Virus record (IMG/VR): IMGVR_UViG_2711768167_000011 | Span: 1-15,286 of that record | Direction: 5' to 3' (one strand) | From: a virus | Taxonomy: Duplodnaviria > Heunggongvirae > Uroviricota > Caudoviricetes | Length of the DNA: 15,286 bases | Shown: piece after piece, positions 1-15,286 of the stretch | How the letters are laid out: the number at the start of each line of letters is the position of its first letter | Numbering within the stretch: position 1 is the first letter of the stretch | Notes under the pieces: generated by a model | What the model was told of the DNA's origin: nothing | The model's input: only the letters and a program-made list of their open reading frames with translations | Databases searched by the model: none | Translations under genes and position numbers: made by a program

Positions 1-141
1 CATTACGTGGGTAGGATCAATTTTCCTGATGACCCCATCGACATAGTATTTTTTCAAAGCAAGAATTGCCTTCTCGCTATGTATTCCTGATAGCTTGATC
101 AGGATATCAAAGTCTCTTTCAGATATATTCCCCTTTGTCAT
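1..141 (-). CDS. hypothetical protein, N-terminal fragment (gene continues past the left window edge)
   Basis: ATG at 141..139 with GGAG (rc of 148..151) 6 nt upstream; frame open for 47 codons to the window edge (MTKGNISERDFDILIKLSG...). Absent from the ORF track because truncated. Confidence 0.35.
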   Translation of the reverse strand, partial: MTKGNISERDFDILIKLSGIHSEKAILALKKYYVDGVIRKIDPTHVM

Positions 142-710
142 GTGTCACTCCATGAATCAAATTTCATAGTAATCAATCTTTCTTTGATCGACTTATAGAT
201 AATAAGATCAGAAATGATAAAAAAGTAACGCATATTTCTTCTCGTCATGTCTACTTATAAAATTCAAATGAACTAACCTGAACTACTTACACTGGAATAT
301 CATTATATTGGAATAATTATAAAACTGAACAAAATGGTCAATGTAATCTGGTTAATTTATAAATATTTACATTGCGTGATGATATTTAATTCCAGTGTTA
401 AGTAATGTCACATGCCTATTATTGGTTACTACTTTGTAGGTGTTTTGGTTCGGCGTTAATATCATTGGTCATAATCACCTGTGAAAGTTTATTCTTGAAA
501 TGTTATAGGTATATTACTTGCAATTAAAAATGAGAAATTTATTATTATTGTGTTTTGCAAATATAATAATTAAAAATTTATTATAAATTATGATTAGAAT
601 TGACAATATAAAAGAATAATAAAACTCAATATGAAAATAATTATCATCTGGTTTGATACTTTTGCTGTTGATTACAGGAATAAAGTGTCAGAATAATATT
701 GTTATTGGGT

Positions 711-738
711 AAAAAAAGCCTCCACTATATGTGGAGGC
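711..738 (-). terminator. rho-independent terminator-like hairpin
   Basis: Perfect 8-bp stem GCCTCCAC (718..725) / GTGGAGGC (731..738), 5-nt loop, preceded on plus strand by A7 (711..717), i.e. a U7 tail on minus-strand RNA. Confidence 0.5.
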
Positions 739-1406
739 AAACCCTTAGATAGTTCTATTGAGGCAAGTATGTTATAAATCTGCCTTATCTTTTATAGCAT
801 ATAAAGATATGTATGCTATATTTTTTTTGAAGAAATTTTTCCAGAAATTACAGTAATACAAGAAATATTAACTGGTGTGATTTTTGGATGTTTAATAAGT
901 ACAGTGTACTTATATTTTTGTAATAAAGATGAACGCGTCCTTTAGATAAACTGAAAAATATTAAGCATGTCTCATGTGGTTTTCTGAATCAAAACTCTTT
1001 TCAGTCTTTGATTTTTTGTTAAAAACAGGTTTATTGCAAGGGTGTTGTTGTGAAATGTGTTTTGGTGTCGTTGTGATTTTATGGTGATAATGTGAATTTT
1101 TATCCTTTCAAGATGGCTCCCTGGACGTTAAATACAGTGGAAATTTATATTAAGATATAAATATAACTATTGCGTTATTTAAATTATTGTCTATTACAGC
1201 TCCAGTTAATAGAGCCTGAAGTAATTTCTTAGTATTTCATCATAAGCGTTTATCTATCGTCTCTTTCTAAATTAACCGGTCGTATTACAAGGTGCTGAAT
1301 CTGATTAAGGAATGATACTTAGGGGATTATGGCTGACTTAATAATTAGATAACTGATAAATGACTATCAGGGGGATATCGTTAAGTCAGCCTTTAAAATC
1401 AAGCGA

Positions 1407-2597
1407 TTATATAGCTGGTGACTCTTTTCGAAGAGCATCAAGGTAGTCAGCGTACCATTGCATCATTTCTCGTCTTCCTTCAAGGTAACGAGCATGGTTG
1501 TATGTACCACGAATGCTGTTTTTGTCCGTATGTGCAAGTTGCATTTCAATCCATGCACTATTGAATCCTTGCTCGTGTAGAACAGTACTCATTGTATGAC
1601 GAAATCCATGCCCGGTAGCTTTTTTGTCATAGCCAATCTTCTTCAAAACCATATTGACGCTTGCATCGCTGATAGGCCTGTTAACATCATTTCTTCCGGC
1701 AAAGATGTATCTGTATCTTCCAGTCAGTTCTTTGAGGATTTGCAGAGACTGGATTGCCTGATCTGACAGAGGGACGATATGCTCCTTCCTCATTTTCATC
1801 CGGGTCGGAGGAACTTCCCATATCTTTTGGGTAAAATCGATCTCACACCATTCCCCCATACGTAATTCTACTGTTCTCAGCCCTGTGAGCATCAACAATT
1901 TTGTAGCTTCACGGGTTACAATACTGCCGGTGTAGTTTTCGAGTTTGTATAAAAACTCTGGTAGTTCAGGAGGAAGCAGGAAAGGGTAATGTGTTCGCTT
2001 ATAGCTTTTCATTGCTATAACCAGATCAGAAGCTGGATTGTATCGTGCCCGACCTGTAACAATGGCATACCGAAACACTTCACCACATCGTTGGCGAACT
2101 TTATTAGCTAGCTCGCAGGCTCCTCGGCTTTCGATACGCTGAAGAACTGCGAGAAGTTCAAGAGGTTCGATTTCACTAATGGGTCTGTTTCCAATGTAGG
2201 GAAACACATTATTTTTGAATGCTCTGTCGACATAATCAGCGTAGCTGGCAGACCAGCCTGAAACTTTTGCGTTGTACCACTCGGTGGCGATTGCGGCAAA
2301 AGTTCTTCCTTCGGAAAGGTTTTTCTCAAGATTTTCAGCTTTCTTGACTTCACCGGGATCTTTACCATCGGCATGTATTTTCTTGGCTTCATCCCGACGT
2401 TTGCGAGCTTCAGCCAATGTAATAGTTGGATAGGTGCCAAATGATAGTTTCTTTTCCTTCCCCGCATAGTGGTACTTCATTCGCCAGTACTTTGAGCCGT
2501 TAGGATTGACCTGAAGGTAGAGCCCACCACCATCGGCAATCTTATAAATTTTATCTTTGGGTTTGGCTGTTTCAACTTGTCGAGCTGTCAGTGGCAT
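1407..2597 (-). CDS. P4-type tyrosine integrase (396 aa)
   Basis: ORF-track 405-aa ORF; preferred start is ATG at 2597 (MPLTARQVETAKPKDK...) with GAGG 7 nt upstream, since the track start at 2624 is TTG. P4-Int-like N-terminus (KP.DK...DGGGLYL.V.P.GSK.WR) and C-terminal catalytic signature GHGFRHT ... RGTYNHARY. Confidence 0.9.
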   Translation of the reverse strand: MPLTARQVETAKPKDKIYKIADGGGLYLQVNPNGSKYWRMKYHYAGKEKKLSFGTYPTITLAEARKRRDEAKKIHADGKDPGEVKKAENLEKNLSEGRTFAAIATEWYNAKVSGWSASYADYVDRAFKNNVFPYIGNRPISEIEPLELLAVLQRIESRGACELANKVRQRCGEVFRYAIVTGRARYNPASDLVIAMKSYKRTHYPFLLPPELPEFLYKLENYTGSIVTREATKLLMLTGLRTVELRMGEWCEIDFTQKIWEVPPTRMKMRKEHIVPLSDQAIQSLQILKELTGRYRYIFAGRNDVNRPISDASVNMVLKKIGYDKKATGHGFRHTMSTVLHEQGFNSAWIEMQLAHTDKNSIRGTYNHARYLEGRREMMQWYADYLDALRKESPAI

Positions 2598-2940
2598 CTG
2601 GGGGCCTCGCAATAGATTGACCAAGATGTGCCCCTAAATAGGCCCCCAAATGTGACTTGATTTACGTTCCCCTGAGGAGAATTAAGGCGACTATTTGAGT
2701 AACATAAGTAAGGGTATGTGCTGATTATAAAGGCTTTTTGTGGGGTATGGTAGATTTCAGGAGAGGTGTGCATGGTGTCCCTGCAGAAATCATCTTAATT
2801 ATTATTATGTTGATTTATATGTAGTTTATTTTTGATTTTTTGTTTTTGTACCCGTTTTGTGCCCGTTTTATTCGATTCCCAATTTAAACTTCGATTCTAG
2901 AAAGGTGAGTAGGGGAGGTTGTCATTTCATGTATCATTAT

Positions 2941-2984
2941 TGTAGACACAGAATAATTACTCGCCTATCCTCACTGTAGACACA
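2941..2984 (+). promoter_or_regulatory. direct repeats upstream of the toxin-antitoxin operon (putative operator)
   Basis: Perfect 10-bp direct repeat TGTAGACACA at 2941..2950 and 2975..2984, 25-60 bp upstream of the antitoxin start; AGGAG at 2996..3000. Confidence 0.3.
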
Positions 2985-3008
2985 CAATAGATACAGGAGT
3001 TAACCCAC

Positions 3009-3257
3009 ATGCGCACACAGGTTGTATTGCAAAAATGGGGTAATAGCATTGCCCTTCGACTAACGGGAAACCTTAAAACCGTTCCGGGGTTTTCAGTGGG
3101 TGATATCGTCAACGTTGAAATTAGTGAAAAGGGGCTTTTTGTAGAAAAGCCTGCACGCCGTCGCCTGAGTGAAGCCGAATTACTCGCCGGGATAACGCCA
3201 GTTACAGCGCACGCGGACGAAATTGCCACCCCATTCAATGAGGAGGTTGATTACTGA
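3009..3257 (+). CDS. MazE/PemI/ChpS-family antitoxin (AbrB/SpoVT-type fold), 82 aa
   Basis: N-terminal KWGNSIALRL motif and C-terminal LAELLAGITP...EEV, resembling MazE as recalled; stop overlaps next start (TGATG at 3255..3259). Confidence 0.85.
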   Translation: MRTQVVLQKWGNSIALRLTGNLKTVPGFSVGDIVNVEISEKGLFVEKPARRRLSEAELLAGITPVTAHADEIATPFNEEVDY

Positions 3258-3601
3258 TGTTTGTACCTAAGCGTGGTGATATTTGCTGGCTGGATTTTGA
3301 GCCGCAGAAAGGAAAAGAGAGCGGAAAGTATCGCCCGGCACTCATACTATCCCATGAGCAATATAACCGACTCACCGGGCTTGTCATATGCTGCCCCATA
3401 AGTACGAGCATACGAAATGCTCCCACAGAAGTTCCGGTAACAAATCTGGACGCCCCCAGCGTGGTAGCAACCACACTCATTCAAACCCTTGACTGGCGTC
3501 AGCGGAAAGCGCGCTTAATCACAGAGGCAGAAGATGGGGTATTTAATGATGTGCTTGAAAGAGTCATTACCCTGATTGGTGGAGAGCATCTGCTTAAGTA
3601 A
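3257..3601 (+). CDS. MazF/PemK-family toxin (endoribonuclease family), 114 aa
   Basis: GDICWLDFEP...GKYRPALILS...LVICCPISTS pattern typical of the PemK/MazF family; translationally coupled to the upstream antitoxin. Confidence 0.85.
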   Translation: MFVPKRGDICWLDFEPQKGKESGKYRPALILSHEQYNRLTGLVICCPISTSIRNAPTEVPVTNLDAPSVVATTLIQTLDWRQRKARLITEAEDGVFNDVLERVITLIGGEHLLK

Positions 3602-3604
3602 AAG

Positions 3605-3622
3605 GAGGGCTGAGAAGCCCTC
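3605..3622. other. intergenic hairpin between convergent genes (weak terminator candidate)
   Basis: 7-bp stem GAGGGCT (3605..3611) / AGCCCTC (3616..3622), 4-nt loop; lies between the toxin stop (3601) and the stop of the convergent 423-aa gene (3645). No clean U-tract on either strand. Confidence 0.25.
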
Positions 3623-3644
3623 AACGTTACCAGAAATTTCCTTG

Positions 3645-4916
3645 CTATTCTTTCCAGTCAATCCCATCCAGTAAGCACCCTGCCTCATATTGCCCAACAA
3701 CCCAGTCAAGATTGCAGGACTCATAGAAAGCGAGGCGATTATACTGTGGCTCGTTTTTTACCAGACCACGAACGGAGCCGCGTTGCCAGTACAGGCACAG
3801 ATTGGCAAGAGGTGTGATCAGCACAGCATTGTCCGGGAAAAATGGAACGGTCACAGCCGGAAGATTCCCCAGCACGGGCTTTTTAATGATTTCCTCGTTA
3901 AGCAAAATTTCCTGATTCATCTGCGATGGATCAAGACGGTTTATCAAAGGCCATTGTTTACGGACCAGAGTATTGTGACTGCATACGGCCACAATGCCTT
4001 CCTGCCACTGTTCATCAATCATGGATTGCCAGGCATCCAGAACAAGTGCATCTATTGTATGGTGTGTACCGCGTGTATTGCTTGTCGGCGATGAAACAGA
4101 AAGACCGCTGATAACCCTTCCCGCTGCTTCGTTTCGAAACTTCTGCAACCATCCGACGCCGCAATCGTCACGGCCCGGATATGTTTCAGGATCAGATTGA
4201 TCGGCATAGTGTGTGCCGTTAAAACCAATCTGAATTAAATCCAGCCATTTCCGGCGTTCAAAAGCGGCACGGGCGCTTCCTTCAAGACCATTTGCGGACG
4301 CGTGAGCATCGACATTGTCGTAGCTCAACGCAAAATCAAAATTAACCTGCTCGCAGCGGTAGCCTCTTGAAACCAGTGAATGCGCCTGTAGTGGCGAACG
4401 GCGCTCGTGAGGTGGCGATGTACGTGCCAACGGCCCCGAAGCGTCTACCAGCACAACCTGACCTGATATATCCGTAACAGGCACGGGGGTTATTTCAGCA
4501 AGGAAATTTGCCTGCCATCCACTGGCAAGCGTTGCACTCTGGCGGGGAACGGGTTCAACTTCTGACGAATAGCGCGCAGTATCACCGGAAAAGTGCAAAT
4601 CCTTCGGATGTTTTCCGGTTATCGACTCGATAGCGCAATTGAAAACCATCTGAGACTGTTGATTTCGTTGTGATACAACATAATCAGCAGTGCAATTATA
4701 ACACTCAATGCCGTCGTTATTACCCCCACCGCTTGCAGTATGCAGGGTGTGAAGCTCAAGCTCACGCTCCAGTTTTTGATATTCATTGTCCAGCGCGCGA
4801 CGCGTCTCATCGCTTATGCTTGCTGTGTTTGCTTTCAGGCGATTCCGGGACATTAACTCCCTGAGTCGGCTCACTATATCAGCGCCGTGCAAATGTGAAA
4901 TATTCAGACCGCCCAT
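3645..4916 (-). CDS. hypothetical protein B (423 aa), downstream gene of the two-gene operon
   Basis: ATG at 4916..4914 overlaps the upstream gene stop (TAATG); corresponds to Met48 of the 470-aa ORF-track entry. Long uninterrupted frame; no Walker A, HNH or PP-loop consensus seen by eye. Confidence 0.7.
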   Translation of the reverse strand: MGGLNISHLHGADIVSRLRELMSRNRLKANTASISDETRRALDNEYQKLERELELHTLHTASGGGNNDGIECYNCTADYVVSQRNQQSQMVFNCAIESITGKHPKDLHFSGDTARYSSEVEPVPRQSATLASGWQANFLAEITPVPVTDISGQVVLVDASGPLARTSPPHERRSPLQAHSLVSRGYRCEQVNFDFALSYDNVDAHASANGLEGSARAAFERRKWLDLIQIGFNGTHYADQSDPETYPGRDDCGVGWLQKFRNEAAGRVISGLSVSSPTSNTRGTHHTIDALVLDAWQSMIDEQWQEGIVAVCSHNTLVRKQWPLINRLDPSQMNQEILLNEEIIKKPVLGNLPAVTVPFFPDNAVLITPLANLCLYWQRGSVRGLVKNEPQYNRLAFYESCNLDWVVGQYEAGCLLDGIDWKE

Positions 4917-5626
4917 TACTGCCACCCCCGGCAGAGTTCTCTGCCCTCCGCAAGGTCGCGCATTTTTTCTGGATTCTGTCGCGCCGCGCTCCATTGTACA
5001 GGTGAAGGGGCGTTCCTGATTGCGTGGCTTACCGAATCCGGCAGTTTCTCCGGGCAATAACGAAGCGGATTGGAGGCATCGCTCTCAATATCGTTAATCC
5101 GGCCGCGAATCAGCCTGACACTTTCAACAATATCTGCCACTTTCAGTGTTTCACATATTTTCTTTTCTGCGTTATACAGCGGCTGGCCAAGCAGCTCACA
5201 TAAACCACGAATCAATAACAGAGCAGGGATCAGCTCGTTAATCAGTCCGGGAAGTGCTTTTGCAAATATCTCTGCCCGCAACTTATTATCAATGCTTTCG
5301 TAAGCACAGCCAGCCTCTGCCGCGTTATAACGACACTCCAGTAACATGATGCGCGCCTCATCATGCAATACCCGCAGACGCTCAAGATTTTCTCGCGCCA
5401 CACCCGCCTGAATGGATAATTTTGCGGAGGCTTCCGTTTTTGCGCCCAGCGCAGACAGGATTGAGTTCTGCCAGTCACGATCGAGAGACTCCAGCTCCCC
5501 TTTCGTCTGTTCGATAGTCGCTTCCAGATTGGTGATTAATGATTCCTGTTCGCTGAGTTTTGCGCTGGCCGTATCAAACTGTGCTTTACATGCCTGATGC
5601 TTGGCGCTTGCCTGAGTTATATCCAT
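4916..5626 (-). CDS. hypothetical protein A (236 aa), predicted helical/coiled-coil N-terminal half
   Basis: ATG at 5626..5624 with AGGAG 6 nt upstream (rc of 5633..5637); heptad-like charged/hydrophobic N-terminus (LSEQESLITNLEATIEQTKGELESLDRDW); stop TAA at 4918..4916 overlaps the start of gene B. Confidence 0.7.
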   Translation of the reverse strand: MDITQASAKHQACKAQFDTASAKLSEQESLITNLEATIEQTKGELESLDRDWQNSILSALGAKTEASAKLSIQAGVARENLERLRVLHDEARIMLLECRYNAAEAGCAYESIDNKLRAEIFAKALPGLINELIPALLLIRGLCELLGQPLYNAEKKICETLKVADIVESVRLIRGRINDIESDASNPLRYCPEKLPDSVSHAIRNAPSPVQWSAARQNPEKMRDLAEGRELCRGWQ

Positions 5627-5676
5627 TGTTTGCTCCTGTAATACATTTTTTACTTACGCGGATTTTTTCCATATTG

Positions 5677-5735
5677 CGTAATACATTCCAGCCGATTTTG
5701 TTCTCGTAATACGCTCACAATACTGTTGTATTACG
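5677..5735. promoter_or_regulatory. divergent promoter/operator region with GTATTACG-family repeats
   Basis: CGTAATAC at 5677..5684 and 5705..5712, GTATTACG at 5728..5735; the last two form a perfect 8-bp inverted repeat with a 15-bp spacer. Sits between the start of gene A (5626, minus) and the small plus-strand gene (5791). Confidence 0.4.
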
Positions 5736-5790
5736 CTTTCTTATATCGCGGGTGTTAAATCCAGGCATAAGCAATCAGGGAGGCAACACG

Positions 5791-6024
5791 ATGAAAAAAC
5801 AAAAGAAAATGCGATACGTATTACGCTGTATTCGTATCCCGCACGAAATCGACCATAAAATAAATCAGATATGTGAGGACAGAGAGATGAACTACTCCCA
5901 GTGCGTCAGAATGTTTATCAGTCAGGGAATTAAGGCCGGGGAAACGCAGGAAGAAGACCGCAACGGGCGCAATGTAGCGGGGGATGTGTGGGCCTGGGCA
6001 AATGACCAGAACTACACGACGTAA
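5791..6024 (+). CDS. small DNA-binding-like protein (77 aa), possible ribbon-helix-helix regulator
   Basis: ATG at 5791 with GGGAGG (5777..5782) upstream; the ORF-track start at 5752 is GTG without an SD. Predicted beta-strand then helices (MRYVLRCIRIPHEIDHKINQICEDRE...), judged by eye only. Confidence 0.5.
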   Translation: MKKQKKMRYVLRCIRIPHEIDHKINQICEDREMNYSQCVRMFISQGIKAGETQEEDRNGRNVAGDVWAWANDQNYTT

Positions 6025-6074
6025 TACAGAAATAACGTAGCCGGTTACACTCGCTGGCTGTGTTATACAAATCA

Positions 6075-6257
6075 CTATGAAGTTTTCAACTTCCTGCGCT
6101 TAGTGATGCGTACAAACGACTCAAGCGTACAAAAACAAGCCCCACACTCAATATTATTGCACTGGTAATACGTTTTGTAGATGTTTTGTTCGTGTTCTTC
6201 CAACGAACGACTACGGGTTCGGGTTGAAGCGCCACAGGCCGGGCAAGGGAAAGACAT
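6075..6257 (-). CDS. Ogr/Delta-family zinc-finger transcriptional activator (60 aa)
   Basis: Four-Cys pattern CPACG...(22 aa)...CNNIECGACF with the conserved YYQCNN-type core of P2 Ogr / P4 Delta as recalled; ATG at 6257 with AGGAG 8 nt upstream. Confidence 0.7.
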   Translation of the reverse strand: MSFPCPACGASTRTRSRSLEEHEQNIYKTYYQCNNIECGACFCTLESFVRITKRRKLKTS

Positions 6258-6618
6258 ATCACGCTCCTCTTACTGGTGTGAAATTTGACCTATTATATCT
6301 TCTGCCGCCCCCTCTGGCTGTATCAAATAAACCCGCAGCAGTCGCCGCGTATTACGCACGGACGCACCGTTCCCATGCTCACTCGTCACATTCCCCGTAT
6401 CAGTTCTCTCTTACCGTAAGAACGGCTCTGGCTGGCGATAAAACTAACCCGGTCGGGCATTCCCGCAGTCTTTAGAGAAAATGTAATTTACCCCCTGAAA
6501 CGCGGGCTGTTCCCCCGTCACCTGCGCGCGAAAAACTCACCGTTTTTTGTGCACGCACGAAATCGCCCTCCGGGTGCGCCAGTACTGGGCTGGATGGGCA
6601 AAAAGTTACTCTAAAAAA

Positions 6619-6645
6619 TTGTGCAAATTTGTGCACTTTTGTGCA
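6619..6645. promoter_or_regulatory. three phased TTGTGCA direct repeats (putative operator or activator site)
   Basis: TTGTGCA at 6619, 6629 and 6639, exactly 10 bp apart; a fourth copy at 6547..6553. Confidence 0.3.
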
Positions 6646-6871
6646 GATGAACAATAGCGTGAAAAAGAGTGCTTTTGAGAGATTTTTTATGGCAACTGCG
6701 CCGCGTGTATTACGTTTTTTACCATCCCCGCCGCGCATGTACATACTTCATTTTTCTGCCAGACAACAGGGCAACTCCCCGTGACTGACAGCCCCAAAAA
6801 ATCAATGATTGATGTTGCATTTTTGTTAAAGGTTAGACCAGTTGTTTTAGGGCTCTGCCTCATAATCCGGT

Positions 6872-7185
6872 GGGGGGTGCGCAAAGCGGTTACAACGGTT
6901 ACAACACTCAAAAACACCACTTAACAGCATGATTTTAATGGATATTGTTTGTAACCGCTTTGCGGTTACACTGCGGTTACAACGGTTACAGGTTTCAAAA
7001 AGCACTTTATTATCAATCAATTAAAAACTTAACCTGTAACCGCCTGTAACCTAACAAAACGGTTACATGTAACCGCGTTGTAACCGCTTTTGTAACTCAT
7101 CGGACCAGTTATAATATATTGATATATAATACAAAAATAAGTAATTTTAAATTTGTAACCGTTGTAACCGCTTTGCGCACCCCCC
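6872..7185. repeat. iteron array (14 copies of GGTTACA/TGTAACC) bounded by 33-bp perfect inverted repeats; candidate replication origin or recombination substrate
   Basis: IR-left 6872..6904 is the exact reverse complement of IR-right 7153..7185, extendable to 36 bp with one mismatch. GGTTACA at 6888, 6897, 6964, 6975, 6984, 7061; TGTAACC at 6950, 7035, 7045, 7068, 7079, 7154, 7163. Internal palindromes GTAACCGCTTTGCGGTTAC (6951..6969) and GGTTACATGTAACC (7061..7074). Confidence 0.6.
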
Positions 7186-7380
7186 CCCAAACTTTAGCGC
7201 GACCCTTTAAAATGTTAATTAAACTCACTTACTCTGTATCTCTCTCGTTAACTTTCTGTTATTGAAATGTATCTCTCCACTGTTTGACTCTTTCTCATAA
7301 TCAGGGGAAGCAAAAAATTGATGGCGGCACTACTGCAATATGGCCACCATTGCATTGCTGTTACCGTTGGTTCTGGCCAA

Positions 7381-7412
7381 CAAAAAAGGTCAGCGGGAAA
7401 CTGACCTCTTTT
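7381..7412 (-). terminator. rho-independent terminator downstream of the primase-integrase operon
   Basis: 7-bp stem AGGTCAG (7387..7393) / CTGACCT (7401..7407), 7-nt loop, flanked by A6 (7382..7387) and TTTT (7409..7412), so bidirectional in form; about 25 nt past the integrase stop at 7437. Confidence 0.6.
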
Positions 7413-7436
7413 GCTGTGAATGCGGCGTTCTGCGGG

Positions 7437-8441
7437 TTACTCTGCTGGCTCTTTTTCTTCGGTGATCACTATGTTGGCTACCGGGTTAAATCTCATGGCA
7501 TCTGCCAGATAATCCGGTGCAAAATGTGCGTATGCCATAGTCTGCTGAATTGTCGCATGCCCAAGGATTTTTTGTAGCGCAAGAATGTTGCCACCGTTCA
7601 TCACAAAGTGACTGGCGAATGTATGCCGCAATACATGCGCAGCCTGCCCCCTCGGTAAATCGGGTTTTATTTTTTTTAATGCCCGGCAAAACTCTCTGTA
7701 CTTCACATCAAACAGTCGCCCGGTTTCTTTTGTTTTTACGGCATCGCATATTTCCTGCGACACAGGCACCGTTCTTTTTCTACCGTTTTTGGTTTCCAGA
7801 AACGTTATTCTGTTATGAACTATTTGCTCTCCATGCAATCTGCTGGCCTCACTCCAGCGGGCTCCGGTACAAAGACACAAGAGCGCAACCCTTCGTTGAT
7901 CTCCATTCAGCCCGTCAAGCAACAATGTGACCTCGTTTTTTGATAAAAAGGCCATTTCCCGCTGCTTTACATAAAGAACAGGAATACCACGAACCGGATG
8001 CTCTGCATCCCACAAACCGATCTTTTTCAGGGCTGTAAACATCCCCGATAATCTGTTCATGTATCTGTTTGCTGAGGACGGCTTTAATCCTTCCGCAATT
8101 TTCTGCGATCGCCATGCAATGATTTTTAATTTGTTGAGTTCTGCCGCAAACATGTCAGCTCCAAGCTCATTAATAATTTTGCCAAGTTGCTGTTTATCCG
8201 TGTTTGCCTTTCGCCTGTGCTGACCGTGATAGACCCACCACAATTCCAGTAAATCGCTAAGCGTTCTCCGGTCGCGATAGCCCTGTATAAACTCGCGCTT
8301 TTCGGCGTTCGCTATGATGTACCGTTCAGTTGCTGTAGCTATCGATTTTTTGTCAAATATTCTTCTGATGCGCTTCCCTTTACGTCCGCATGGCCTGATA
8401 TCGAGCAGCCACCGCCCATCATGCATCTTTCTGATCGGCAT
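7437..8441 (-). CDS. P2-type tyrosine integrase (334 aa)
   Basis: N-terminus MPIRKMHDGRWLLDIRPCGRKGKRIRRIFDKKS closely resembles recalled P2 Int (DGRYEVDIRPTGRNGKRIRRKFDKKS); catalytic HVLRHTFASH and C-terminal Tyr (QTMAYAHF). Start ATG at 8441 with AGGAGG upstream; the ORF-track start at 8477 lacks an SD. Confidence 0.85.
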   Translation of the reverse strand: MPIRKMHDGRWLLDIRPCGRKGKRIRRIFDKKSIATATERYIIANAEKREFIQGYRDRRTLSDLLELWWVYHGQHRRKANTDKQQLGKIINELGADMFAAELNKLKIIAWRSQKIAEGLKPSSANRYMNRLSGMFTALKKIGLWDAEHPVRGIPVLYVKQREMAFLSKNEVTLLLDGLNGDQRRVALLCLCTGARWSEASRLHGEQIVHNRITFLETKNGRKRTVPVSQEICDAVKTKETGRLFDVKYREFCRALKKIKPDLPRGQAAHVLRHTFASHFVMNGGNILALQKILGHATIQQTMAYAHFAPDYLADAMRFNPVANIVITEEKEPAE

Positions 8442-8443
8442 GT

Positions 8444-11113
8444 TTAACTCCCCTCCTTGTAACTGAATATCCGGCATTTCAGTACTTCCGGCTCTCTGGC
8501 CTCGGCGACCCCTCTTCCGGCGTTTGCCTGTCTGGAGACCTCACTACGAATGGTTTTGCGGCCTGTCAAAGGTCGGGAACGTCCGGCTGCGAGCAACTCA
8601 ATCATTTCGCGGTCAGTTCGGATCTCCACGCGGTGGATAGCGGCAGCCTGTGCCAGTTGCGGAATACTGATAGCAATCCCCTCGCGGCATCCCTTGCCGT
8701 AGTGGTTTACACCGTATTTTGTTATGCCGTCCAGATAGTCGAACGCCTCCCAGAACGCTATTACTTCCGGCAAGTCATCCGTTACCGCTTTAACTTGTTC
8801 CGCTGCCATTCGTTCCAGTTCCTGGCATGTGGCATTAAGCCATTCATCCGGGATATCAATAACGCATTTCAGCGCCCTGACCAGCGCAATAAGTTGCGCG
8901 TGATTTTTGGCAATACGGGGATGGAGAATATTTTCGCAACCGCAAAGGCGGGTCGTTTCAGGCTCTGAGAGCGCCAGAAACATTTCCATAATTGCCCGTT
9001 CACGGCTGACTGCCCGATGAATAAACCCTGACACCTTCTCAACGGGGTAGAGTTCCAGTCGTCTCGCCGCCAGCCGGGTATCAGACGAGTGGCGCTTTTT
9101 ATCGGTATATATGCGAATCAGTCGCTCAATAATTGCAAGTGAGGCGTTTACCCTGGCATTCTGTGCAATCACGATAGCGCCCTTAAAATCCGGGTCATAG
9201 GTGTTGTTATTGTTGGTCTTAACGCCACGAACGCCGATACCGCCGCCGTTATAGAGGCTTTTCAGGTTATCGAAGTCAAACGCACCTCTTTTTTGCGCAT
9301 TGCCTCCCCGGTCTGCTTCAATCAGAACAACAGGTAATCCGGCGACCTGTCCAAAGGTGCGCTTCCAGCCCGCCTCTGATCCTTTGGTTGGATCAACGCC
9401 TTCATAGTTGTCACGACCGCACAACCGCCAGCAAAAATCAATCAATGTTGATTTACCCGTTCCGGGCTCCCCGGTGACTTCAAGGAAGGGGAAGGATTCT
9501 TCTTTATCCCGGATTTGTTCGCTGAACAGGGAGCCCAACCAGAAAGCCAGGGTAATAATTCCTTTTTCACCAAAAGCCAGCCAGAGATCTTCCACCCAGG
9601 ACTCTGTAAACTCATCCGGTTTTTTGTAGTTAATCTGTAATGTGGGTTTTTCGCTTAATGGTTTTGCGTTTATGCCATCAATTTCAAAATAATCTTCGTC
9701 ATTGATTTCATAAGTTTTTCCCTTGTAAACAGCAATATCATTAAACAGCCATGCCCCAATCGCCTTGTTGTATCCGATAAAATCCTGACCAATAACCTCT
9801 TTTATTGCGGGAAGGTCATTTTTTATTAATGCGTCAAGGTGCGCAGTTGTTCCGGTATAAATGCCGCCTTTTGCCACATGCAACAGGCGTTTTTTAAATT
9901 CAGATGCGGATGTCAATTGTCCTGATGTAAAGGTGTTTTTCACCGTAGCACCATCCGGGAACGTAACACGGAAGTAATACCATGCTTCATCCGTGTCATT
10001 ATTTCGAATGTAATAAAGCGGCGCTGGGTTACAGTTTGCGATTTCTTTTACTGCGCCAGATTCCTTAAGTGCAATTTTGCGCGCTTCATCCTCATCAACA
10101 CTTCTCTCATTCTTGGCACGCTCTACAGCTTTCATATAGCGCTCAATGTCCAGTTTGAACCAGAAAACACGGTTATCAAAAGTAAAATGAAATTCCTTCC
10201 GCTCACGAAAGGAAAATATTATTAGCGCCTTATCTCTCGGAGATTTCGCCAGCAATAAATCACCGTAATGACGGTATCTTTTCACATCATGGCCACGCAG
10301 CTTTCCGGCGATGTGTAAATCATTCCAGTCGCGTTTATTGTTGTTTTTACCTGGCAACGCCGCTGCCGTTCTCCAGCCGTCTTCGGCGCTGCGTTCTGCA
10401 TGTTTTTTCGCGTAACGCTCACCCGCACGCCCGTTATCCAGCGCCCACACAATAACCGGACGGGGATTATCCCCGCACAGCTTCGCCAGCTCTTCCAGCG
10501 CCTTATCAGGGTAGTTCACGGCAGACATGACAGAAACGGCCGCAATGCCATTCTGGTTAAGGCTGATGGCATCAAAGATGCCCTCACAAATCCAGATTTC
10601 TTTGGCCTTGCTTAAATCTGCTCCCGGATAAGCCCACCACAACCCCTTGTAGCTGCCGGAAAAATTCGCCTTGCGCGCGAAGCGTCCCGGTCTGTCTATG
10701 ATGCGCTCCCACCACACGCCGTCAGCCAGCGTAAAACGCACAGTAGCGGCCTGTTCGCCGTTTTCCTTGTCCTGGTATCGCTCCTGAGTAAATGCGCCCT
10801 TCAGTGGCCCCACAGCAATATTGCGCGCCTCCTGAAGATAAGCTGCCACCGCTGCATATGGCTCGTCTTTCGTGCTGATATAACGATCTGACCATGATGA
10901 AAACACATCCGGGTAAAGTTCTTTGGTCAGCAGGTCTGTACCGCATTTATTTTCGCGCCCACAGTGTACGATGTACGGCCTTTCAAGGCTGGTAAACAAC
11001 TCTTTCTTTCCACATTGCGGACAAACACCATACCGGAGGTAGTTATTTTCTTCTTTGAAGTTGTAATCACGGATAAGACGGTTAATAATCTCTTTTCTGA
11101 TGTCAGATTTCAT
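8444..11113 (-). CDS. bifunctional primase-helicase (P4 alpha-like / PICI pri-rep-like), 889 aa
   Basis: N-terminal zinc-binding CPQCGKK...HCGRENKCG, Toprim-like ICEGIFDAISL, P-loop GEPGTGKST and Walker-B-like VVLIEAD. ATG at 11113 with GGAG 8 nt upstream preferred over the GTG at 11137. Confidence 0.85.
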   Translation of the reverse strand: MKSDIRKEIINRLIRDYNFKEENNYLRYGVCPQCGKKELFTSLERPYIVHCGRENKCGTDLLTKELYPDVFSSWSDRYISTKDEPYAAVAAYLQEARNIAVGPLKGAFTQERYQDKENGEQAATVRFTLADGVWWERIIDRPGRFARKANFSGSYKGLWWAYPGADLSKAKEIWICEGIFDAISLNQNGIAAVSVMSAVNYPDKALEELAKLCGDNPRPVIVWALDNGRAGERYAKKHAERSAEDGWRTAAALPGKNNNKRDWNDLHIAGKLRGHDVKRYRHYGDLLLAKSPRDKALIIFSFRERKEFHFTFDNRVFWFKLDIERYMKAVERAKNERSVDEDEARKIALKESGAVKEIANCNPAPLYYIRNNDTDEAWYYFRVTFPDGATVKNTFTSGQLTSASEFKKRLLHVAKGGIYTGTTAHLDALIKNDLPAIKEVIGQDFIGYNKAIGAWLFNDIAVYKGKTYEINDEDYFEIDGINAKPLSEKPTLQINYKKPDEFTESWVEDLWLAFGEKGIITLAFWLGSLFSEQIRDKEESFPFLEVTGEPGTGKSTLIDFCWRLCGRDNYEGVDPTKGSEAGWKRTFGQVAGLPVVLIEADRGGNAQKRGAFDFDNLKSLYNGGGIGVRGVKTNNNNTYDPDFKGAIVIAQNARVNASLAIIERLIRIYTDKKRHSSDTRLAARRLELYPVEKVSGFIHRAVSRERAIMEMFLALSEPETTRLCGCENILHPRIAKNHAQLIALVRALKCVIDIPDEWLNATCQELERMAAEQVKAVTDDLPEVIAFWEAFDYLDGITKYGVNHYGKGCREGIAISIPQLAQAAAIHRVEIRTDREMIELLAAGRSRPLTGRKTIRSEVSRQANAGRGVAEAREPEVLKCRIFSYKEGS

Positions 11114-11161
11114 ATATAAAACTCCACCCCACTGCACCTTTTGCCGTGGGGTTTTTATTAA

Positions 11162-11461
11162 TTACTCGTTACTTATTGCTTTGGCAATCCCGGCGGTTTC
11201 AGCACTATGCCATGAAAAAATTCCGCCAGAAGTATGCATTCCTGACTTAATCACTCGTAATTCCCGATAAAGAATGTTAGTTAATGATTCCATTTCATTA
11301 ATTTGCACTGGCATTCTCTCACTGGTATTAATTTCACCTGTCAATGCTGAAAGGAGCGCAATAACATTTATTACATCTTCAAGATTCTCAATGGAATCTT
11401 CCGTGAAAAAACCAGCGTATTCTTTTTTGTATATATTGCGGATATTCTGATTTTTAGACAT
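11162..11461 (-). CDS. hypothetical protein (99 aa)
   Basis: ATG at 11461 with GGGGAG 5 nt upstream; sits immediately upstream of the primase on the same strand. Confidence 0.5.
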   Translation of the reverse strand: MSKNQNIRNIYKKEYAGFFTEDSIENLEDVINVIALLSALTGEINTSERMPVQINEMESLTNILYRELRVIKSGMHTSGGIFSWHSAETAGIAKAISNE

Positions 11462-11528
11462 AAAAACTCCCCGACCCGTTAAGATCGAAATATAAATTTA
11501 ATTCAGTTATCAGTTGGTAATTCGGTAA

Positions 11529-11747
11529 TCAGTCGGAAAGCTGCGTCACCTTCAACGCTTTGAAATGTGTCATTCCCAGCTCTTCCAGCCCTTCGGCTGC
11601 GCGGCGTATGGCTTCGCCCGGTCCTGTTCCGTATACCGTTGCATGTGCATGTTTGGTTAACCCACGTTTATTAACGGCATAACCCAACACAAAGAAACGT
11701 TTTTCACCACTGCCATTATTTTTACGGGATATTGAACGGCTTTTCAT
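11529..11747 (-). CDS. hypothetical small protein (72 aa)
   Basis: ATG at 11747 overlaps the upstream stop (ATGA), indicating translational coupling. Confidence 0.45.
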   Translation of the reverse strand: MKSRSISRKNNGSGEKRFFVLGYAVNKRGLTKHAHATVYGTGPGEAIRRAAEGLEELGMTHFKALKVTQLSD

Positions 11748-11932
11748 TTCTTCACCTTTACCACTGATGCTGTGAGTTCTTCTTCTGGCAATTGATATTT
11801 CGGCGCAATTTCTTCCGTATACCTGATAGCGTCCCTTGCCGCTTTTCCTTTTGATTTATATTTACGTATCGTGTGGAAGTTTTCTTCCTCTCCTGTTACC
11901 ACATTACGCAATTTAATATGAATCTCGTACAT
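11744..11932 (-). CDS. hypothetical small protein (62 aa)
   Basis: ATG at 11932 (Met11 of the ORF-track entry, MYEIHIKL...) with GGAGG 7 nt upstream; 2 nt after the upstream stop. Confidence 0.45.
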   Translation of the reverse strand: MYEIHIKLRNVVTGEEENFHTIRKYKSKGKAARDAIRYTEEIAPKYQLPEEELTASVVKVKK

Positions 11933-11934
11933 CG

Positions 11935-12117
11935 TTACCCCTCCATGATTTTTACTGCGCATTTGTGGGTTAATCGCCCCTGTTTGTCATTGCGGGAATA
12001 TGCCATACGACAGGCATCAAGCCATACATCGTCATAAGTCGGATATTCCCGGGAATGAATCATCTGGCGAACGTCGCCGTTCTGGTAGTTAATCAGGGTG
12101 ATAAGGAGCTTAAACAT
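11935..12117 (-). CDS. hypothetical small protein (60 aa)
   Basis: ATG at 12117 (Met27 of the ORF-track entry, MFKLLITLINY...) with GGGAGG 6 nt upstream; overlaps the 3' end of the Icd-like gene by 8 nt. Confidence 0.4.
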   Translation of the reverse strand: MFKLLITLINYQNGDVRQMIHSREYPTYDDVWLDACRMAYSRNDKQGRLTHKCAVKIMEG

Positions 12118-12283
12118 GGCACGCCTCCCGGACACGGATACGGGCAACAAAGACCAGACGAGATGCCGGAAGCAGGGCGCGCGCTTCGCGCTCACTGGCA
12201 GCGGTAACGGTATGAAGGCGGATATTTTTACCGTGGCACTGCATAAAGCGCCAGATAAAATCAGGGCGTGTTGATATAGCCAT
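12110..12283 (-). CDS. Icd-like cell-division-inhibitor family small protein (57 aa)
   Basis: C-terminal 57 aa of the 175-aa ORF-track entry, starting at ATG 12283 with AAGGAG 8 nt upstream; FIWRF...SEREARALL...LVFVARI pattern resembles Icd-like proteins of P4-like elements as I recall them. Confidence 0.5.
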   Translation of the reverse strand: MAISTRPDFIWRFMQCHGKNIRLHTVTAASEREARALLPASRLVFVARIRVREACHV

Positions 12284-12699
12284 TTTGGCGGCTCCTTCTA
12301 CTGATTTACGGAGTCTCGCCAGCACGCTGCTAAACATGGTGGCGGGACGTAACAGGGTTAGCAGACTGGCGTAGAAGAAACCAGCGAGCGCAAAGGCTCC
12401 CCCATTACGCCCCGCCATAATACGGGGTAGGGTGGAATTACGGGCACAAAAAAACCGCATTACGGAAATATAGCGGCTACCCGCTTCTACTATCAGGCTG
12501 CTAAACCCGGCACCCGCTTTATGAGGTGCGGGCAAACGATACGCCATGACAAAAAAGCGAGTCAAGCAATATTGCAAATTATTTTTGGGCGATTGCGCTG
12601 AGTGATTGATTTTTAAGAGTAAAAAAGTCATAATCATTTCTGGCTATTGTTTCTTATTGTTGATTTCAGGTGCACTAAATGCACATCCTTGACTGGTTG

Positions 12700-12729
12700 G
12701 CTCGCTGGCTTTAGCGAGCTTCTTTTTTG
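12700..12729 (+). terminator. plus-strand intrinsic-terminator-like hairpin with no plus-strand CDS upstream
   Basis: 7-bp stem GCTCGCT (12700..12706) / AGCGAGC (12713..12719), 6-nt loop, followed by TTCTTTTTTG (12720..12729). Confidence 0.3.
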
Positions 12730-13190
12730 CTCTGCTGTCAGTGATCGGCCTCCTTCCCTCATATGTAGTCATGTGCTCATTCCAGTCAGGTGGATAATGC
12801 TGTATTACCGGACATCCGGTTATGATGTTTAAAGCGTTTGTTTGTTTATGCCACGTGGAGAATATACCCCCACCGCCATTACTTGTATTTATCATAACAG
12901 TTCACCCAATTCGGTTAATGTAACCGGAATAACTCAATTTCATACACTGTAAATAAATGCTGATTTTAAACTTAGCTCCTTGGAATATATTTCTTACGTG
13001 TGACGCACAGGTGAAAATATCCCTCTGATAGTCCATTTTCTTTTATTTTGTCACATCTGTTTACTCCGGTTCCCTTAACAAGGGTAGAGCATCTTTTAAA
13101 CCATGAATGCATCTTCGGTTAAGTGATGTTTCTTATTGTATGAAATATTTAGGCGCATATCGCGCCATGCTGACTATAAAATGAAAATAA

Positions 13191-13412
13191 TTAAGCCTGA
13201 AAACGTTGTTGTTTTCTTTCTTCTATCCAGTCGATAATTTCCTCTTCAACCCATGCAACCGCGCGAGGGCCTATTTTTATTGGTTTGGGGAATATATCAG
13301 ATTTTATATCTTCGTAAATTCGAGCTCTTGATCTCCCTGTGATTTCAATGACTCTGGGGAGTCTTATTAATTTTTGAATCCGCCTTTCGCTGGTCTGTGA
13401 GTATGCTGACAT
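13191..13412 (-). CDS. alpA: AlpA-family (excisionase-like) phage transcriptional regulator (73 aa)
   Basis: LIRLPRVIEITGRSRARIYEDIK...FPKPIKIGPRAVAWVEEEI matches the AlpA/Xis-like helix-turn-helix pattern; ATG at 13412 with AGGAGG 5 nt upstream. Confidence 0.85.
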   Translation of the reverse strand: MSAYSQTSERRIQKLIRLPRVIEITGRSRARIYEDIKSDIFPKPIKIGPRAVAWVEEEIIDWIEERKQQRFQA

Positions 13413-13942
13413 ATTGGCCTCCTGTATATGCTGACATTTTACGTTAGCTCACAGCGGGAGCATGTAAGATCTCGCGGTCGTCTGCGGGACGAGAAAAATC
13501 ATAAACAACGAAAAGCGGATTTGTAAATCAGGTCGATTTTCAGGCGGGGTTGACAGGGACAGTGAGATTTGTTCCATGTGTGCAATATACATTTTAGGAC
13601 CACTTTAAGCCACTTTAAACCGCCAGAAAGCGACAAAGAATAACAAGTTAGTGCCAGAAAGGTTTGCTGACTTACCCTTTTAGGTACCAGAAAAAGCCCT
13701 TTCAGGTCGGTGTAATGCTTGTGAACGCTGAAATAGTGGTTTCTGAAAACAAAAAAAGAATTGAAAATGCGATACATATCACAAAATAATATCGATAAAA
13801 TAGTTTGATTTTTTTTGTTTTTATTAAAAGCACTGGTTAATTGTAAAAAATTAATTATAAATCAAATGGATATATCTGTTTTTTTAGGGTAAAAATCACT
13901 AGGTGCTTTTAGCAGTATCTTATTCTATTGATTTTAAAAGAT

Positions 13943-13976
13943 AAAAAAATCGGCGTGTCCACATATTGTCCACGCC
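13943..13976 (-). terminator. rho-independent terminator candidate downstream of the right-hand integrase
   Basis: Stem GGCGTG (13952..13957) / CACGCC (13971..13976), preceded on plus strand by A7 (13943..13949), i.e. a U7 tail on the minus strand; about 50 nt past the integrase stop at 14024. Confidence 0.45.
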
Positions 13977-14023
13977 TTGAGTTTAATTCAGCCGCTTGGG
14001 ATAGTTTAGTTTGTTGAGTTGAT

Positions 14024-15286
14024 TCAGTCTGTTTCGTTAGTCCATTTAAAATCATAGGGGGAAATATATGCCGTCTTGCAGGTGTCGAGATAATCAGCCC
14101 ACCATTGCAACATTCGGCGGCGTTCCTGCATATGTTCAGCTCTGTGAACGTATGCAGCCCGGACACTGCCTCTTTCCCTGTGACTCATCTGAAGCTCAAC
14201 GGCTTCTCTTGTCCACCTGCCTGACTCTGTCAGCGCCGAACAGGCCATGGTCCTGAATCCGTGACCACAAATATCTTTTTTTGTGTCGTATCCCATGTGG
14301 CGTAATGCCTTGTTAATGGTGTTTTCGCTCATTGGTTTTATCTGGTAATGGTCGCTGGGGAAAATAAACACTTCATCACCGGATATATTTCTTATATCGT
14401 CAAGAAGCTGCATGGCCTGAGTGGGTAAAGGGATGGCGTGAGGGGTTCCCATTTTCGTTCCACGATATGAATATTTTACGCCTTCTATTTTTTCGCGTTC
14501 TGCTGGTATTACCCACATTGATTTATCAAAGTCAATTTCATTCCAACGAGCAAAACGCAATTCACTTGAGCGAATAAAAATTAATAAATTTAATTTTAGT
14601 GCAAATTGCGTTAATAACCGTCCATTCATCTTATGGTGGTAATCATTTATTTTGCCAAGTAATTCAGGTAATCGCTCAAGGGGAAGAGCGGGGCGATGTT
14701 TGGTTTTATTAGTTTCGATTGCACCGTTCAGTTCCTGCGCTGGATTGTATTTAATCATTCCATTCTGTACAGCGTAGCGCATAATGGCGTTCATTCGCTG
14801 CTTGTTACGTGATGCTGTCTCAAGCACTCCTTTGTCTTCCATTTTGCGTAAAGGAATCAGTAGATCCATGGTTGTGATCTCGTTAATTGGCCTTTTACCA
14901 AGAATGGGGAAGATGTGGTTTTCCAGGTCTTTTAAGACTTTTTGCGCGTGTAATTCGCTCCACCCCTTTTTCCGGCTGTGCCATTCTCTGGCAACGTCTT
15001 CAAAAAGCACTATTTGAGGTTTTGGTGTGTGCAGTGGGTCAATGCCTTTAGCCAGGCTCGCCAGATATTCATCACGAGCGTTCCTTGCCTGTGCAAGTGT
15101 TACGGCAGGATAAATGCCTAAAGCTCGGGTCGTTTCTTTACCGTTGATAACCTTGCGAAAGCGCCAGTATTTTGAGCCGTTGGGGTGAACATAGAGATAC
15201 AGGCCTTTCCCGTCACGAAGTTTTTTAATTTTATTGTTGTCCTTATCTGGTTTGGCGTTACGTACAGCTATATCAGTCAGTTTCAT
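14024..15286 (-). CDS. P4-type tyrosine integrase (420 aa)
   Basis: N-terminus MKLTDIAVRNAKPDKD...GKGLYLYVHPNGSKYWRF typical of P4-family integrases; catalytic GHGFRTMA and C-terminal RAAYVHRAEH; the start codon is the last 3 nt of the window, so RBS and upstream att lie outside. Confidence 0.9.
   Translation of the reverse strand: MKLTDIAVRNAKPDKDNNKIKKLRDGKGLYLYVHPNGSKYWRFRKVINGKETTRALGIYPAVTLAQARNARDEYLASLAKGIDPLHTPKPQIVLFEDVAREWHSRKKGWSELHAQKVLKDLENHIFPILGKRPINEITTMDLLIPLRKMEDKGVLETASRNKQRMNAIMRYAVQNGMIKYNPAQELNGAIETNKTKHRPALPLERLPELLGKINDYHHKMNGRLLTQFALKLNLLIFIRSSELRFARWNEIDFDKSMWVIPAEREKIEGVKYSYRGTKMGTPHAIPLPTQAMQLLDDIRNISGDEVFIFPSDHYQIKPMSENTINKALRHMGYDTKKDICGHGFRTMACSALTESGRWTREAVELQMSHRERGSVRAAYVHRAEHMQERRRMLQWWADYLDTCKTAYISPYDFKWTNETD

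Follow-up and report, generated by a model that had tools for sequence, protein, structure and literature searches.

P4-type satellites are textbook parasites that carry no structural protein genes. Here, a pair of adjacent genes, A and B, is described from a P4-related satellite contained in IMG/VR record IMGVR_UViG_2711768167_000011 (positions 1 to 15,286; this whole stretch of 15,286 nucleotides (nt), assigned to Caudoviricetes, is referred to as the window). In reviews, the helper-subversion proteins of P4-type elements are described as having no phage homologues, Sid as having no sequence homologues and P4-like satellites as having no capsid genes. A P4-like satellite is made up of seven core components, namely int, psu, delta, sid, alpA, epsilon/ash and alpha (PMC10085698).

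In the P4 procapsid, Sid consists of a trimerising coiled-coil stem, a dimerising body, a linker loop (residues 200-219) and a C-terminal helix, of which residues 219-224 contact the sir loop of gpN (PMC7552001). Sid binds hexamers only, and gpN and Sid form small shells without gpO (PMC7552001). Heads of P4 size are published to hold ~12 kb. A different solution is known from SaPIbov5, in which Ccm, which carries a delta domain and is a diverged version of the capsid protein of its helper, is built into T=4 capsids (PMC8569155). Phage-inducible chromosomal islands of the capsid-forming type (cf-PICIs) carry a full module of capsid protein, protease, portal, adaptors and terminase subunits.

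The two genes of the window are located as follows:
4916 to 5626, minus strand: gene A, 236 amino acids (aa), open reading frame (ORF) with ribosome-binding site; remote Sid-like candidate for an external scaffold or size-determination protein
3645 to 4916, minus strand: gene B, 423 aa, satellite-type paralogue of the P2-family major capsid protein with HK97 fold

From sequence, A-B appears to be a conserved capsid-hijacking module that forms part of the morphogenesis core of an Escherichia coli phage satellite of ~12.7 kb. In our preferred reading, to which a probability of roughly 0.55 is assigned, it is the capsid-morphogenesis module of an integrative, P4-related satellite that parasitises P88-like (Xuanwuvirus/Gemsvirus) phages of the P2 family. 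A previous inspection of the letters and ORFs (the sequence-only reading) had placed both frames on the minus strand with the coordinates and lengths given above, and these were confirmed. So were the TAATG overlap (CATTA on the plus strand at 4914 to 4918), where the TAA stop of A overlaps the ATG of B, and the strong ribosome-binding site of A (AGGAG, 7 nt 5' of its ATG). Both coding sequences were annotated by RefSeq and the Prokaryotic Genome Annotation Pipeline (PGAP) in 57 of 5426 complete E. coli genomes with 90-99% nucleotide identity.

Gene B had been regarded as unrecognisable. A single Pfam scan was sufficient to assign it to Phage_cap_P2 (PF05125; 248.7 bits against a gathering cutoff of 27, E = 1.1e-73, profile positions 38-327), and PGAP already names it a P2-family capsid protein; it thus has confident homology to a characterised system, a result that the sequence-only reading had itself named as refuting its interpretation. 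Matches were also obtained with PHROG_70 'major head protein' (E = 6e-78) and with the gpN chain of the P4 procapsid (PDB 7jw1; E = 7e-56). Identity was 34% to P2 GpN, in an alignment starting at B residue 86 and GpN residue 3, and 35% to the P88 capsid protein; across phage capsid proteins it ranged from 33 to 39%, and no phage record exceeded ~39%. Seventeen invariant and 35 near-invariant columns were common to B and the phage proteins. An AlphaFold (AF2) model of B, computed from an alignment with 41 homologues, reached a predicted local distance difference test (pLDDT) score of 75. In Foldseek searches with this model, the top matches were gpN of 7jw1 and the phiRSA1 capsid protein (7oz4), with E values of 1e-26 to 1e-21 and template modelling (TM) scores of 0.72-0.78; gpN was the best of them (TM 0.74-0.78). 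The capsid protein of cf-PICI EcCI2 was matched distantly.

B is set apart from ordinary phage capsid proteins by several features. It scored 136.5 bits against the NCBIfam equivalog TIGR01551, below the cutoff of 219.65, whereas the P88 capsid protein reached 256.6. In a database search, the members of its clade (341-497 aa) were retrieved with 41-52% identity and 265-908 bits and normal phage capsid proteins with at most 204 bits. The clade members were from E. coli, Salmonella, Klebsiella, Erwinia, Pectobacterium and Symbiopectobacterium. In neighbour-joining trees, this satellite clade was monophyletic with 100% bootstrap support, and together with the P88-type capsid proteins it was separated from all other P2-family capsid proteins with 96% support. 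No portal, terminase, protease or scaffold gene was detected in the element or in seven related loci. B never adjoins gpO, gpM or gpQ, unlike GpN, which is encoded in the phage head module (gpQ-gpP / gpO-gpN-gpM). B is therefore a bona fide P2-family capsid protein by fold, but not an ordinary phage orthologue, and belongs to a deep clade found only in satellites.

One structural difference is located at the N-terminus:
4662 to 4916, minus strand: N-terminal extension of B (codons 1-85), not present in phage capsid proteins (AF2 model)

For this extension, two helices (residues 12-29 and 36-61) followed by a disordered Gly-rich linker were predicted by AF2. The helix motifs are kept across satellites and the linker is variable. 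The extension is possibly a built-in scaffold resembling a delta domain. In addition, the clade has an 8-aa insertion in the N-arm, and its sequence is altered near the gpO cleavage site of gpN. The counterpart of the gpN sir loop is shorter and has a signature of its own, V(I/V)SGLSV(S/A). In three B homologues (P0121-P0123, 451-497 aa), the linker between helices and core is enlarged by tandem low-complexity repeats (…SSxHSE(S/P)GEFS…), and therefore its length seems free to vary.

Two ideas about the extension were considered and dropped. As a fused GpO scaffolding domain, B(17-67) gave 28-30% identity to the GpO C-terminus in BLASTP and shared a similar GGG tail, at E values of 0.35-2.5. 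In P24A7b, one tblastn match ran through both scaffold and capsid, which is explained by the shared reading frame of those two genes. In locus L012, a small gene separates the A-like gene from the capsid gene; it was compared by eye as a possible detached B extension and bore no resemblance to the latter.

Gene A was more difficult to assign. By word-based search, only near-identical E. coli proteins were retrieved. When 1.84 billion representatives were searched exhaustively with HMMER, about ten full-length relatives of ~240 aa and 24-40% identity were obtained. In their alignment, only the start Met, P207 and S208 are invariant, with Q211, W52 and G61 near-invariant. Compared with the single P4 Sid sequence (244 aa), the family profile scored 58% probability (E = 1e-4), and compared with a 20-member Sid alignment in hhalign it scored 82% (E = 1e-5). 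With a relaxed threshold, the profile alignment was collinear from end to end (1-241 against 1-245). The PSPxQ motif of A was aligned with Sid T219-P220-x-Q222, so that its invariant residues fall on the very segment, 219-224, by which Sid contacts the sir loop. An AF2 model computed from the A sequence alone was of low confidence; it was all-helical, with long helices in the N-terminal part (3-59 and 65-104) and another at the C-terminus after a non-helical linker. Psu was ruled out as an identity of A for lack of similarity, and for a GpO-like scaffold nothing was seen in sequence or profile comparison; the A family profile matched neither protein. Taken together, A is likely to be a remote relative of Sid; as the homology is remote and the model poor, this assignment is regarded as likely and not as proven.

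To assess the pair as a unit, genomic contexts were collected for remote homologues of A, with identities from 33% down to 24%, and for those of B. In seven remote lineages, an A-like gene (237-253 aa) was directly followed by a Phage_cap_P2 gene (345-456 aa), with a 78-aa gene between them in one lineage. The co-occurrence of A and B as a unit, which the sequence-only reading had put forward for checking, is thus confirmed. Gene order was kept at 24-50% identity, an Ogr/Delta gene was located near the pair in all family loci, and the pairwise identities of A and B across loci were correlated (r = 0.81), which indicates co-divergence. DNA 3' of the capsid gene differed among the relatives, with HigBA, RelBE/ParE, Hok, MazEF or nothing at this position. 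Since the order of A and B is kept while this DNA varies, the pair is counted as core and the toxin-antitoxin genes as cargo. The earlier placement of A-B in a cargo position is reversed by this result, the cargo being located between B and attR (see below).

The ratio of non-synonymous to synonymous substitution rates (dN/dS), calculated for a single allele pair with a 96%-identical allele, was 0.32 for A and 0.05 for the B core. In this comparison both genes are under purifying selection, and they are accordingly considered functional.

A link to a particular group of helper phages was found upstream of the pair:
6480 to 6646: cos-like block, 167 nt, non-coding, 78-83% identity to P88-like phages
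6486 to 6529: near-identical 44-nt core of the block
6504 to 6522: best P2-cos-like 19-mer in the window, 13 of 19 matches, inside the block
about 6587 to 6600 (~6590): equivalent of the P884B11 genome terminus
6613 to 6636: conserved box of the block

Among 50,697 phage records, the block was the only nucleotide similarity of the whole element to phages. It matched the P88-like Peduoviridae P88, vB_EcoM-569R5, PhiR44_2, 500465-2, 520873 and Citrobacter Shae_phiSM, and more weakly Klebsiella 3LV2017 and Enterobacter phiT5282H. In P88-like phages, it follows the portal gene at a distance of a few hundred bases, on the stretch from gpQ to the gpA side where P2 has its cos. Xuanwuvirus P884B11, whose linear record runs collinear with P2, has the termini of that record inside the block. 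The block was present in every family locus with enough flank, always between int2 (a second integrase gene, see below) and Ogr/Delta. This pattern is as expected of cos mimicry, as practised by P4 with P2. The block is probably the cos of the satellite and marks the lineage of its helper. The P2/P4 cos site itself (GGCGAGGCGGGGAAAGCAC) was ruled out: no match within 3 mismatches was found in the element, and the best match, with 6 mismatches, was at chance level. The cos-like block and the capsid tree agree in pointing to P88-like phages as helpers. A 90-aa ORF (6472 to 6744, minus strand; hypothetical protein according to PGAP) overlaps the block. It is probably spurious, because the block is unannotated non-coding DNA in most phage records.

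The remaining features of the element are:
2772 to 2791, plus strand: attR, a degenerate copy of the tRNA-Arg 3' end, from alignment with the tRNA-Arg region of NZ_CP033635
3009 to 3601, plus strand: MazE/MazF toxin-antitoxin pair (PemK_toxin, E = 1e-24; PGAP), variable cargo between B and attR
3605 to 3622, minus strand: terminator-like hairpin 3' of B, shared with the convergent mazF
7437 to 8477, minus strand: int2, second tyrosine recombinase, P2-type (Int_N and Phage_integrase, 346 aa), directly 3' of the primase gene
12110 to 12637, minus strand: Icd-like ORF (NCBIfam phage_ICD_like, 52.7 bits), overlapping the C4 and isrK RNAs
12335 to 12422 and 12448 to 12529, minus strand: C4 antisense RNA and isrK (Rfam, 73.3 and 50.6 bits)

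Positions 2772 to 15286 of the window constitute one element. A tRNA-Arg island of E. coli NZ_CP033635 has 99.3% identity to it, and homology to that island stops at 2772. With attR at 2772-2791, the element measures ~12.7 kb, close to the 11.6 kb of P4. From the tRNA side, it consists of a P4-type integrase, AlpA/Vis, the C4/isrK-type RNAs with the Icd-like ORF, small ORFs, a Toprim primase, the P2-type integrase int2, a 1.2-kb non-coding region, Ogr/Delta, a small divergent gene, A, B, MazEF and attR. The neighbourhood given in the sequence-only reading (MazE/MazF on one side, the small divergent gene on the other, the primase upstream) was correct. The integrase was 53% identical to P4 Int and the Vis protein 36% identical to its P4 counterpart. 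Phage_AlpA and Ogr_Delta domains were detected with Pfam. The primase, a Toprim protein of 897 aa, matched DUF5906 weakly, and only 27 aa of it were matched by P4 alpha. The region from 12110 to 12637 is a P4/P1-type RNA immunity region. For Psu and epsilon, no tblastn match was obtained in the element and no Pfam match in its small ORFs; Ash or Derepression domains were present in some relatives.

The position of int2 is kept in the satellite family (L008, L013, L015 and L017), beside a P4-type integrase at the tRNA end. In the 1.2-kb non-coding gap between Ogr/Delta and int2, an iteron array was found at 6869 to 7188, comprising at least 14 octamers (CGGTTACA/TGTAACCG) in both orientations flanked by a 36-nt inverted repeat. 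By analogy with ori/crr of P4, this array is probably the replication origin. Another P4-type integrase gene (1407 to 2624, minus strand) is located directly outside attR, and NZ_CP033635 is without that island at this position. Given this location, the gene is attributed to a second island integrated in tandem into the pseudo-tRNA end.

Expression of the pair appears to be governed by the following features:
5627 to 5790: control region between A and the small divergent gene
5638 to 5644, 5678 to 5684, 5706 to 5712 and 5728 to 5734, with a fifth at 5818 to 5824: GTATTAC/GTAATAC boxes, flanking the A promoter and the start of the small gene
within 5698 to 5720, minus strand: degenerate Ogr/Delta-type dyad, TGT-N15-ACA
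5791 to 6024, plus strand: small divergent gene, 77 aa, with a ribbon-helix-helix (RHH)-like motif, LRxIRIPHEID..YSxCV
6075 to 6257, minus strand: Ogr/Delta-type zinc-finger late-gene activator (Pfam PF04606, E = 3.4e-10)

No good sigma-70 promoter was found 5' of A. An exact TGT-N12-ACA dyad (TTGTTGT...ACAAC), the same element as is found 5' of P4 sid (Psid), was located 90-122 nt 5' of the ATG of the A-like gene in six of nine family regions; in 5000 shuffles, a mean of 0.39 and a maximum of 3 regions contained it. Homologues of the small divergent gene were found at the same position in L006, L009, L012, L013, L015 and L017, which amounts to most lineages with enough flank. The 77-aa product gave weak, sub-threshold RHH matches (RelB/DinJ, ORF56) and is a probable regulator of the A-B promoter. 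Related lineages carry a box variant of their own, GTTATAC. The boxes and the RHH-like gene suggest a lineage-specific pair of operator and repressor that controls A-B. Expression of A-B would thus be late and Ogr/Delta-dependent, with modulation by the small regulator.

For comparison with P4, A (236 aa) and Sid (244 aa) are alike in length, in predicted all-helical structure, in their collinear profile alignment, in a W/G stem motif and in an (S/T)PxQ motif at the gpN contact. Both elements have an Ogr/Delta activator and a late-type promoter dyad beside the Sid-like gene, and both are integrative satellites of ~12 kb with P4-type integrase, AlpA/Vis, C4/CI-type RNA and Icd. Unlike P4, which has no capsid gene and uses helper gpN, the present element has its Sid-like gene translationally coupled to a capsid paralogue. 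Further differences are a Delta protein of a single 60-aa unit, a primase without alpha homology at BLAST level, a probable cos of P88 type instead of P2/P4 type and a gene order other than psu-delta-sid.

Like SaPIbov5 with its ccm gene, the satellite is of cos type and carries a diverged copy of a helper-family HK97-fold capsid gene with an N-terminal extension. The Ccm copy yields small capsids, and B may have the same role by analogy. Ccm, however, acts alone, at pentamers, in a Gram-positive siphovirus system and converts prolate into isometric heads, whereas B has a candidate Sid-like partner and belongs to a P2-family (myovirus) system. B and Ccm have only the fold in common and are not close relatives in sequence, so that the likeness is one of role. 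As in cf-PICIs, an HK97-fold capsid protein is encoded by the satellite itself; in contrast to their full module, only this protein and the Sid-like protein are present. Being without the rest of a head module, the element must take portal, protease and terminase from its helper. In comparison with GpN and the P88 capsid protein, B has the same Pfam family, fold and core positions, and its nearest phage relatives are of P88 type. It differs from them in its 33-39% identity, an additional N-terminal domain of ~85 aa, an N-arm enlarged by the 8-aa insertion and a sir loop of altered form, as well as in its location outside a phage head module and its score below the TIGR01551 cutoff.

The preferred reading is based on observed homologies, conserved gene order, purifying selection, the copied cos region and element size. 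The following mechanism is proposed for it. When a helper becomes active, an Ogr/Delta-type activator, either that of the satellite or that of the helper, would turn on the A-B operon, which the small RHH-like protein probably modulates via the GTATTAC boxes. B, with its HK97/GpN fold, would be incorporated as the structural subunit of small, satellite-specific shells. A would bind B as Sid binds gpN, its C-terminal PSPxQ segment contacting the sir loop in the A-domain of B, and would join hexamers into a small lattice, probably T=4. The two-helix N-terminal domain of B may act as a built-in internal scaffold, to be removed by the GpO-type protease of the helper. Portal, protease, terminase, head completion and tail would be provided by the helper, and the satellite genome of ~12.7 kb would be packaged by helper terminase through the copied cos region. 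This mechanism is plausible, since gpN and Sid form small shells without gpO, P4-size heads hold genomes of similar length and Ccm provides a precedent.

Several observations weigh against this reading. The homology of A to Sid is moderate, at 82% probability, no match between them was obtained with tblastn or phmmer, and the structure model of A is poor (pLDDT 50). The exact TGT-N12-ACA dyad was not found 5' of A in the window, where only the N15 variant is present. The P2-like 19-mer taken alone is at chance level, and the cos cleavage site is not placed exactly. In profile-profile comparison, the B extension and GpO scored a probability of 0.1%, and in the allele comparison the extension had 5 non-synonymous changes and 1 synonymous change. 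Ccm forms no shells on its own (PMC8569155), and B need not do so either. Lastly, L004 and L005 have an A-like gene (40% identity) with a MazE-type antitoxin gene after it in place of a capsid gene. This relative (L004, 1725 to 2806, and L005; 276 aa) is the closest one to A outside the E. coli type and is located 3' of two Ogr/Delta genes. It follows that a Sid-like-only variant exists, in which A may act on the capsid protein of the helper and B may be dispensable.

The main rival, which we consider unlikely, departs from this last point. Chimeric capsids would form as with Ccm, with B only at special positions (e.g. pentamers) among helper hexamers, forcing a small isometric lattice, and with A binding helper hexamers as Sid does in P4. 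That A can act on helper capsid protein is suggested by the lineage having A alone, and the restriction of Sid to hexamers would agree with such a division of positions. However, the Sid-contact loop of B is specific to satellites and A and B co-diverge, which is easier to understand if A binds B, Sid-type binding being to hexamers, and the full set of P2-family core positions is kept in B.

The other explanations are much less likely. Satellites often interfere with their helpers, and B might be a dominant-negative 'poison' subunit that aborts P2-family head assembly with A as cofactor, to the benefit of host or satellite and with no transmissible particle being made. The absence of portal, protease and terminase genes from the element and the unusual N-arm, cleavage region and sir loop of B would fit such a role. 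It is made improbable by the copy of a cos region beside the module, the P4-like size and the late-promoter dyads, all of which point to packaging and transfer, by purifying selection on the whole B core and not on interfaces only, and by the empty result with PADLOC. In this search (PADLOC-DB), A gave only a coiled-coil-type match to JetC (E = 0.003, 13.5 bits) and B none.

That A and B are functionless leftovers of the head module of a decayed P2-like prophage was suggested by the phage origin of B, by the P2-type int2 nearby and by cox/C-like genes nearby in L009. This explanation is effectively refuted by the conservation data: both frames are unbroken, in the 57 E. coli genomes as well as in different genera, the dN/dS values are low (0.05 and 0.32), gene order is kept at 24-50% identity, the clade is monophyletic and deep, and no other head-gene remnants are present. 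A new anti-phage defence system unrelated to capsid assembly, which the sequence-only reading had favoured with regard to the position of the pair, would accord with the defence hotspots of satellites (PMC9122126) and the adjoining toxin-antitoxin pair, yet is very improbable, as B is a capsid homologue, A is likely a remote relative of Sid, the pair is core with the hotspot 3' of B, and PADLOC returned no match. The second suggestion of that reading, interference with a helper by redirection of its capsid or packaging, is favoured by the evidence and is made more specific by the preferred reading.

Taking the preferred reading further, P4-related satellites across Enterobacterales would form a hitherto unrecognised family that parasitises P88-like phages and builds small shells from a self-scaffolding capsid protein of its own and a co-evolving Sid-like cage. 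The helper would contribute no more than portal, protease, terminase and tail. This extended form is tentative, and we place it somewhat below even odds. As a side observation, a related satellite in L008 (10929 to 16726) directly adjoins a 186/P2-like prophage with CI repressor, CP76, Fil and DUF2732, which is possibly its resident helper.

In the literature searched, the coverage of which was incomplete so that an earlier description is possible, neither capsid-carrying P4-type satellites nor satellites of P88-like phages were found. By its gene content, the element described here is a P4-type satellite in which a candidate Sid-like gene is combined with a capsid paralogue of the satellite itself and a cos region of P88 type. 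Marker-based satellite finders probably miss or misclassify such elements, and the capsid gene makes prophage predictors call a 'P2-like prophage remnant'.

The findings delineate a satellite lineage of E. coli, Salmonella, Klebsiella, Erwinia and Pectobacterium in which a protein that is likely Sid-like, a phage-derived capsid paralogue and a probable copy of a P88-type cos are coupled. If the preferred reading is true, P88-like phages and this satellite family would constitute an unstudied helper-satellite pair, and the Sid family would reach far beyond P4. The A-B module would then be a Gram-negative counterpart of SaPIbov5 Ccm and a plausible stepping stone to capsid-forming satellites. 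Should the shells indeed be built from the satellite's own capsid protein, such a satellite would be immune to helper escape by 'sir'-type capsid mutations, and the lineage would hold an intermediate position in evolution between satellites that remodel capsids (P4) and those that form them (cf-PICI).

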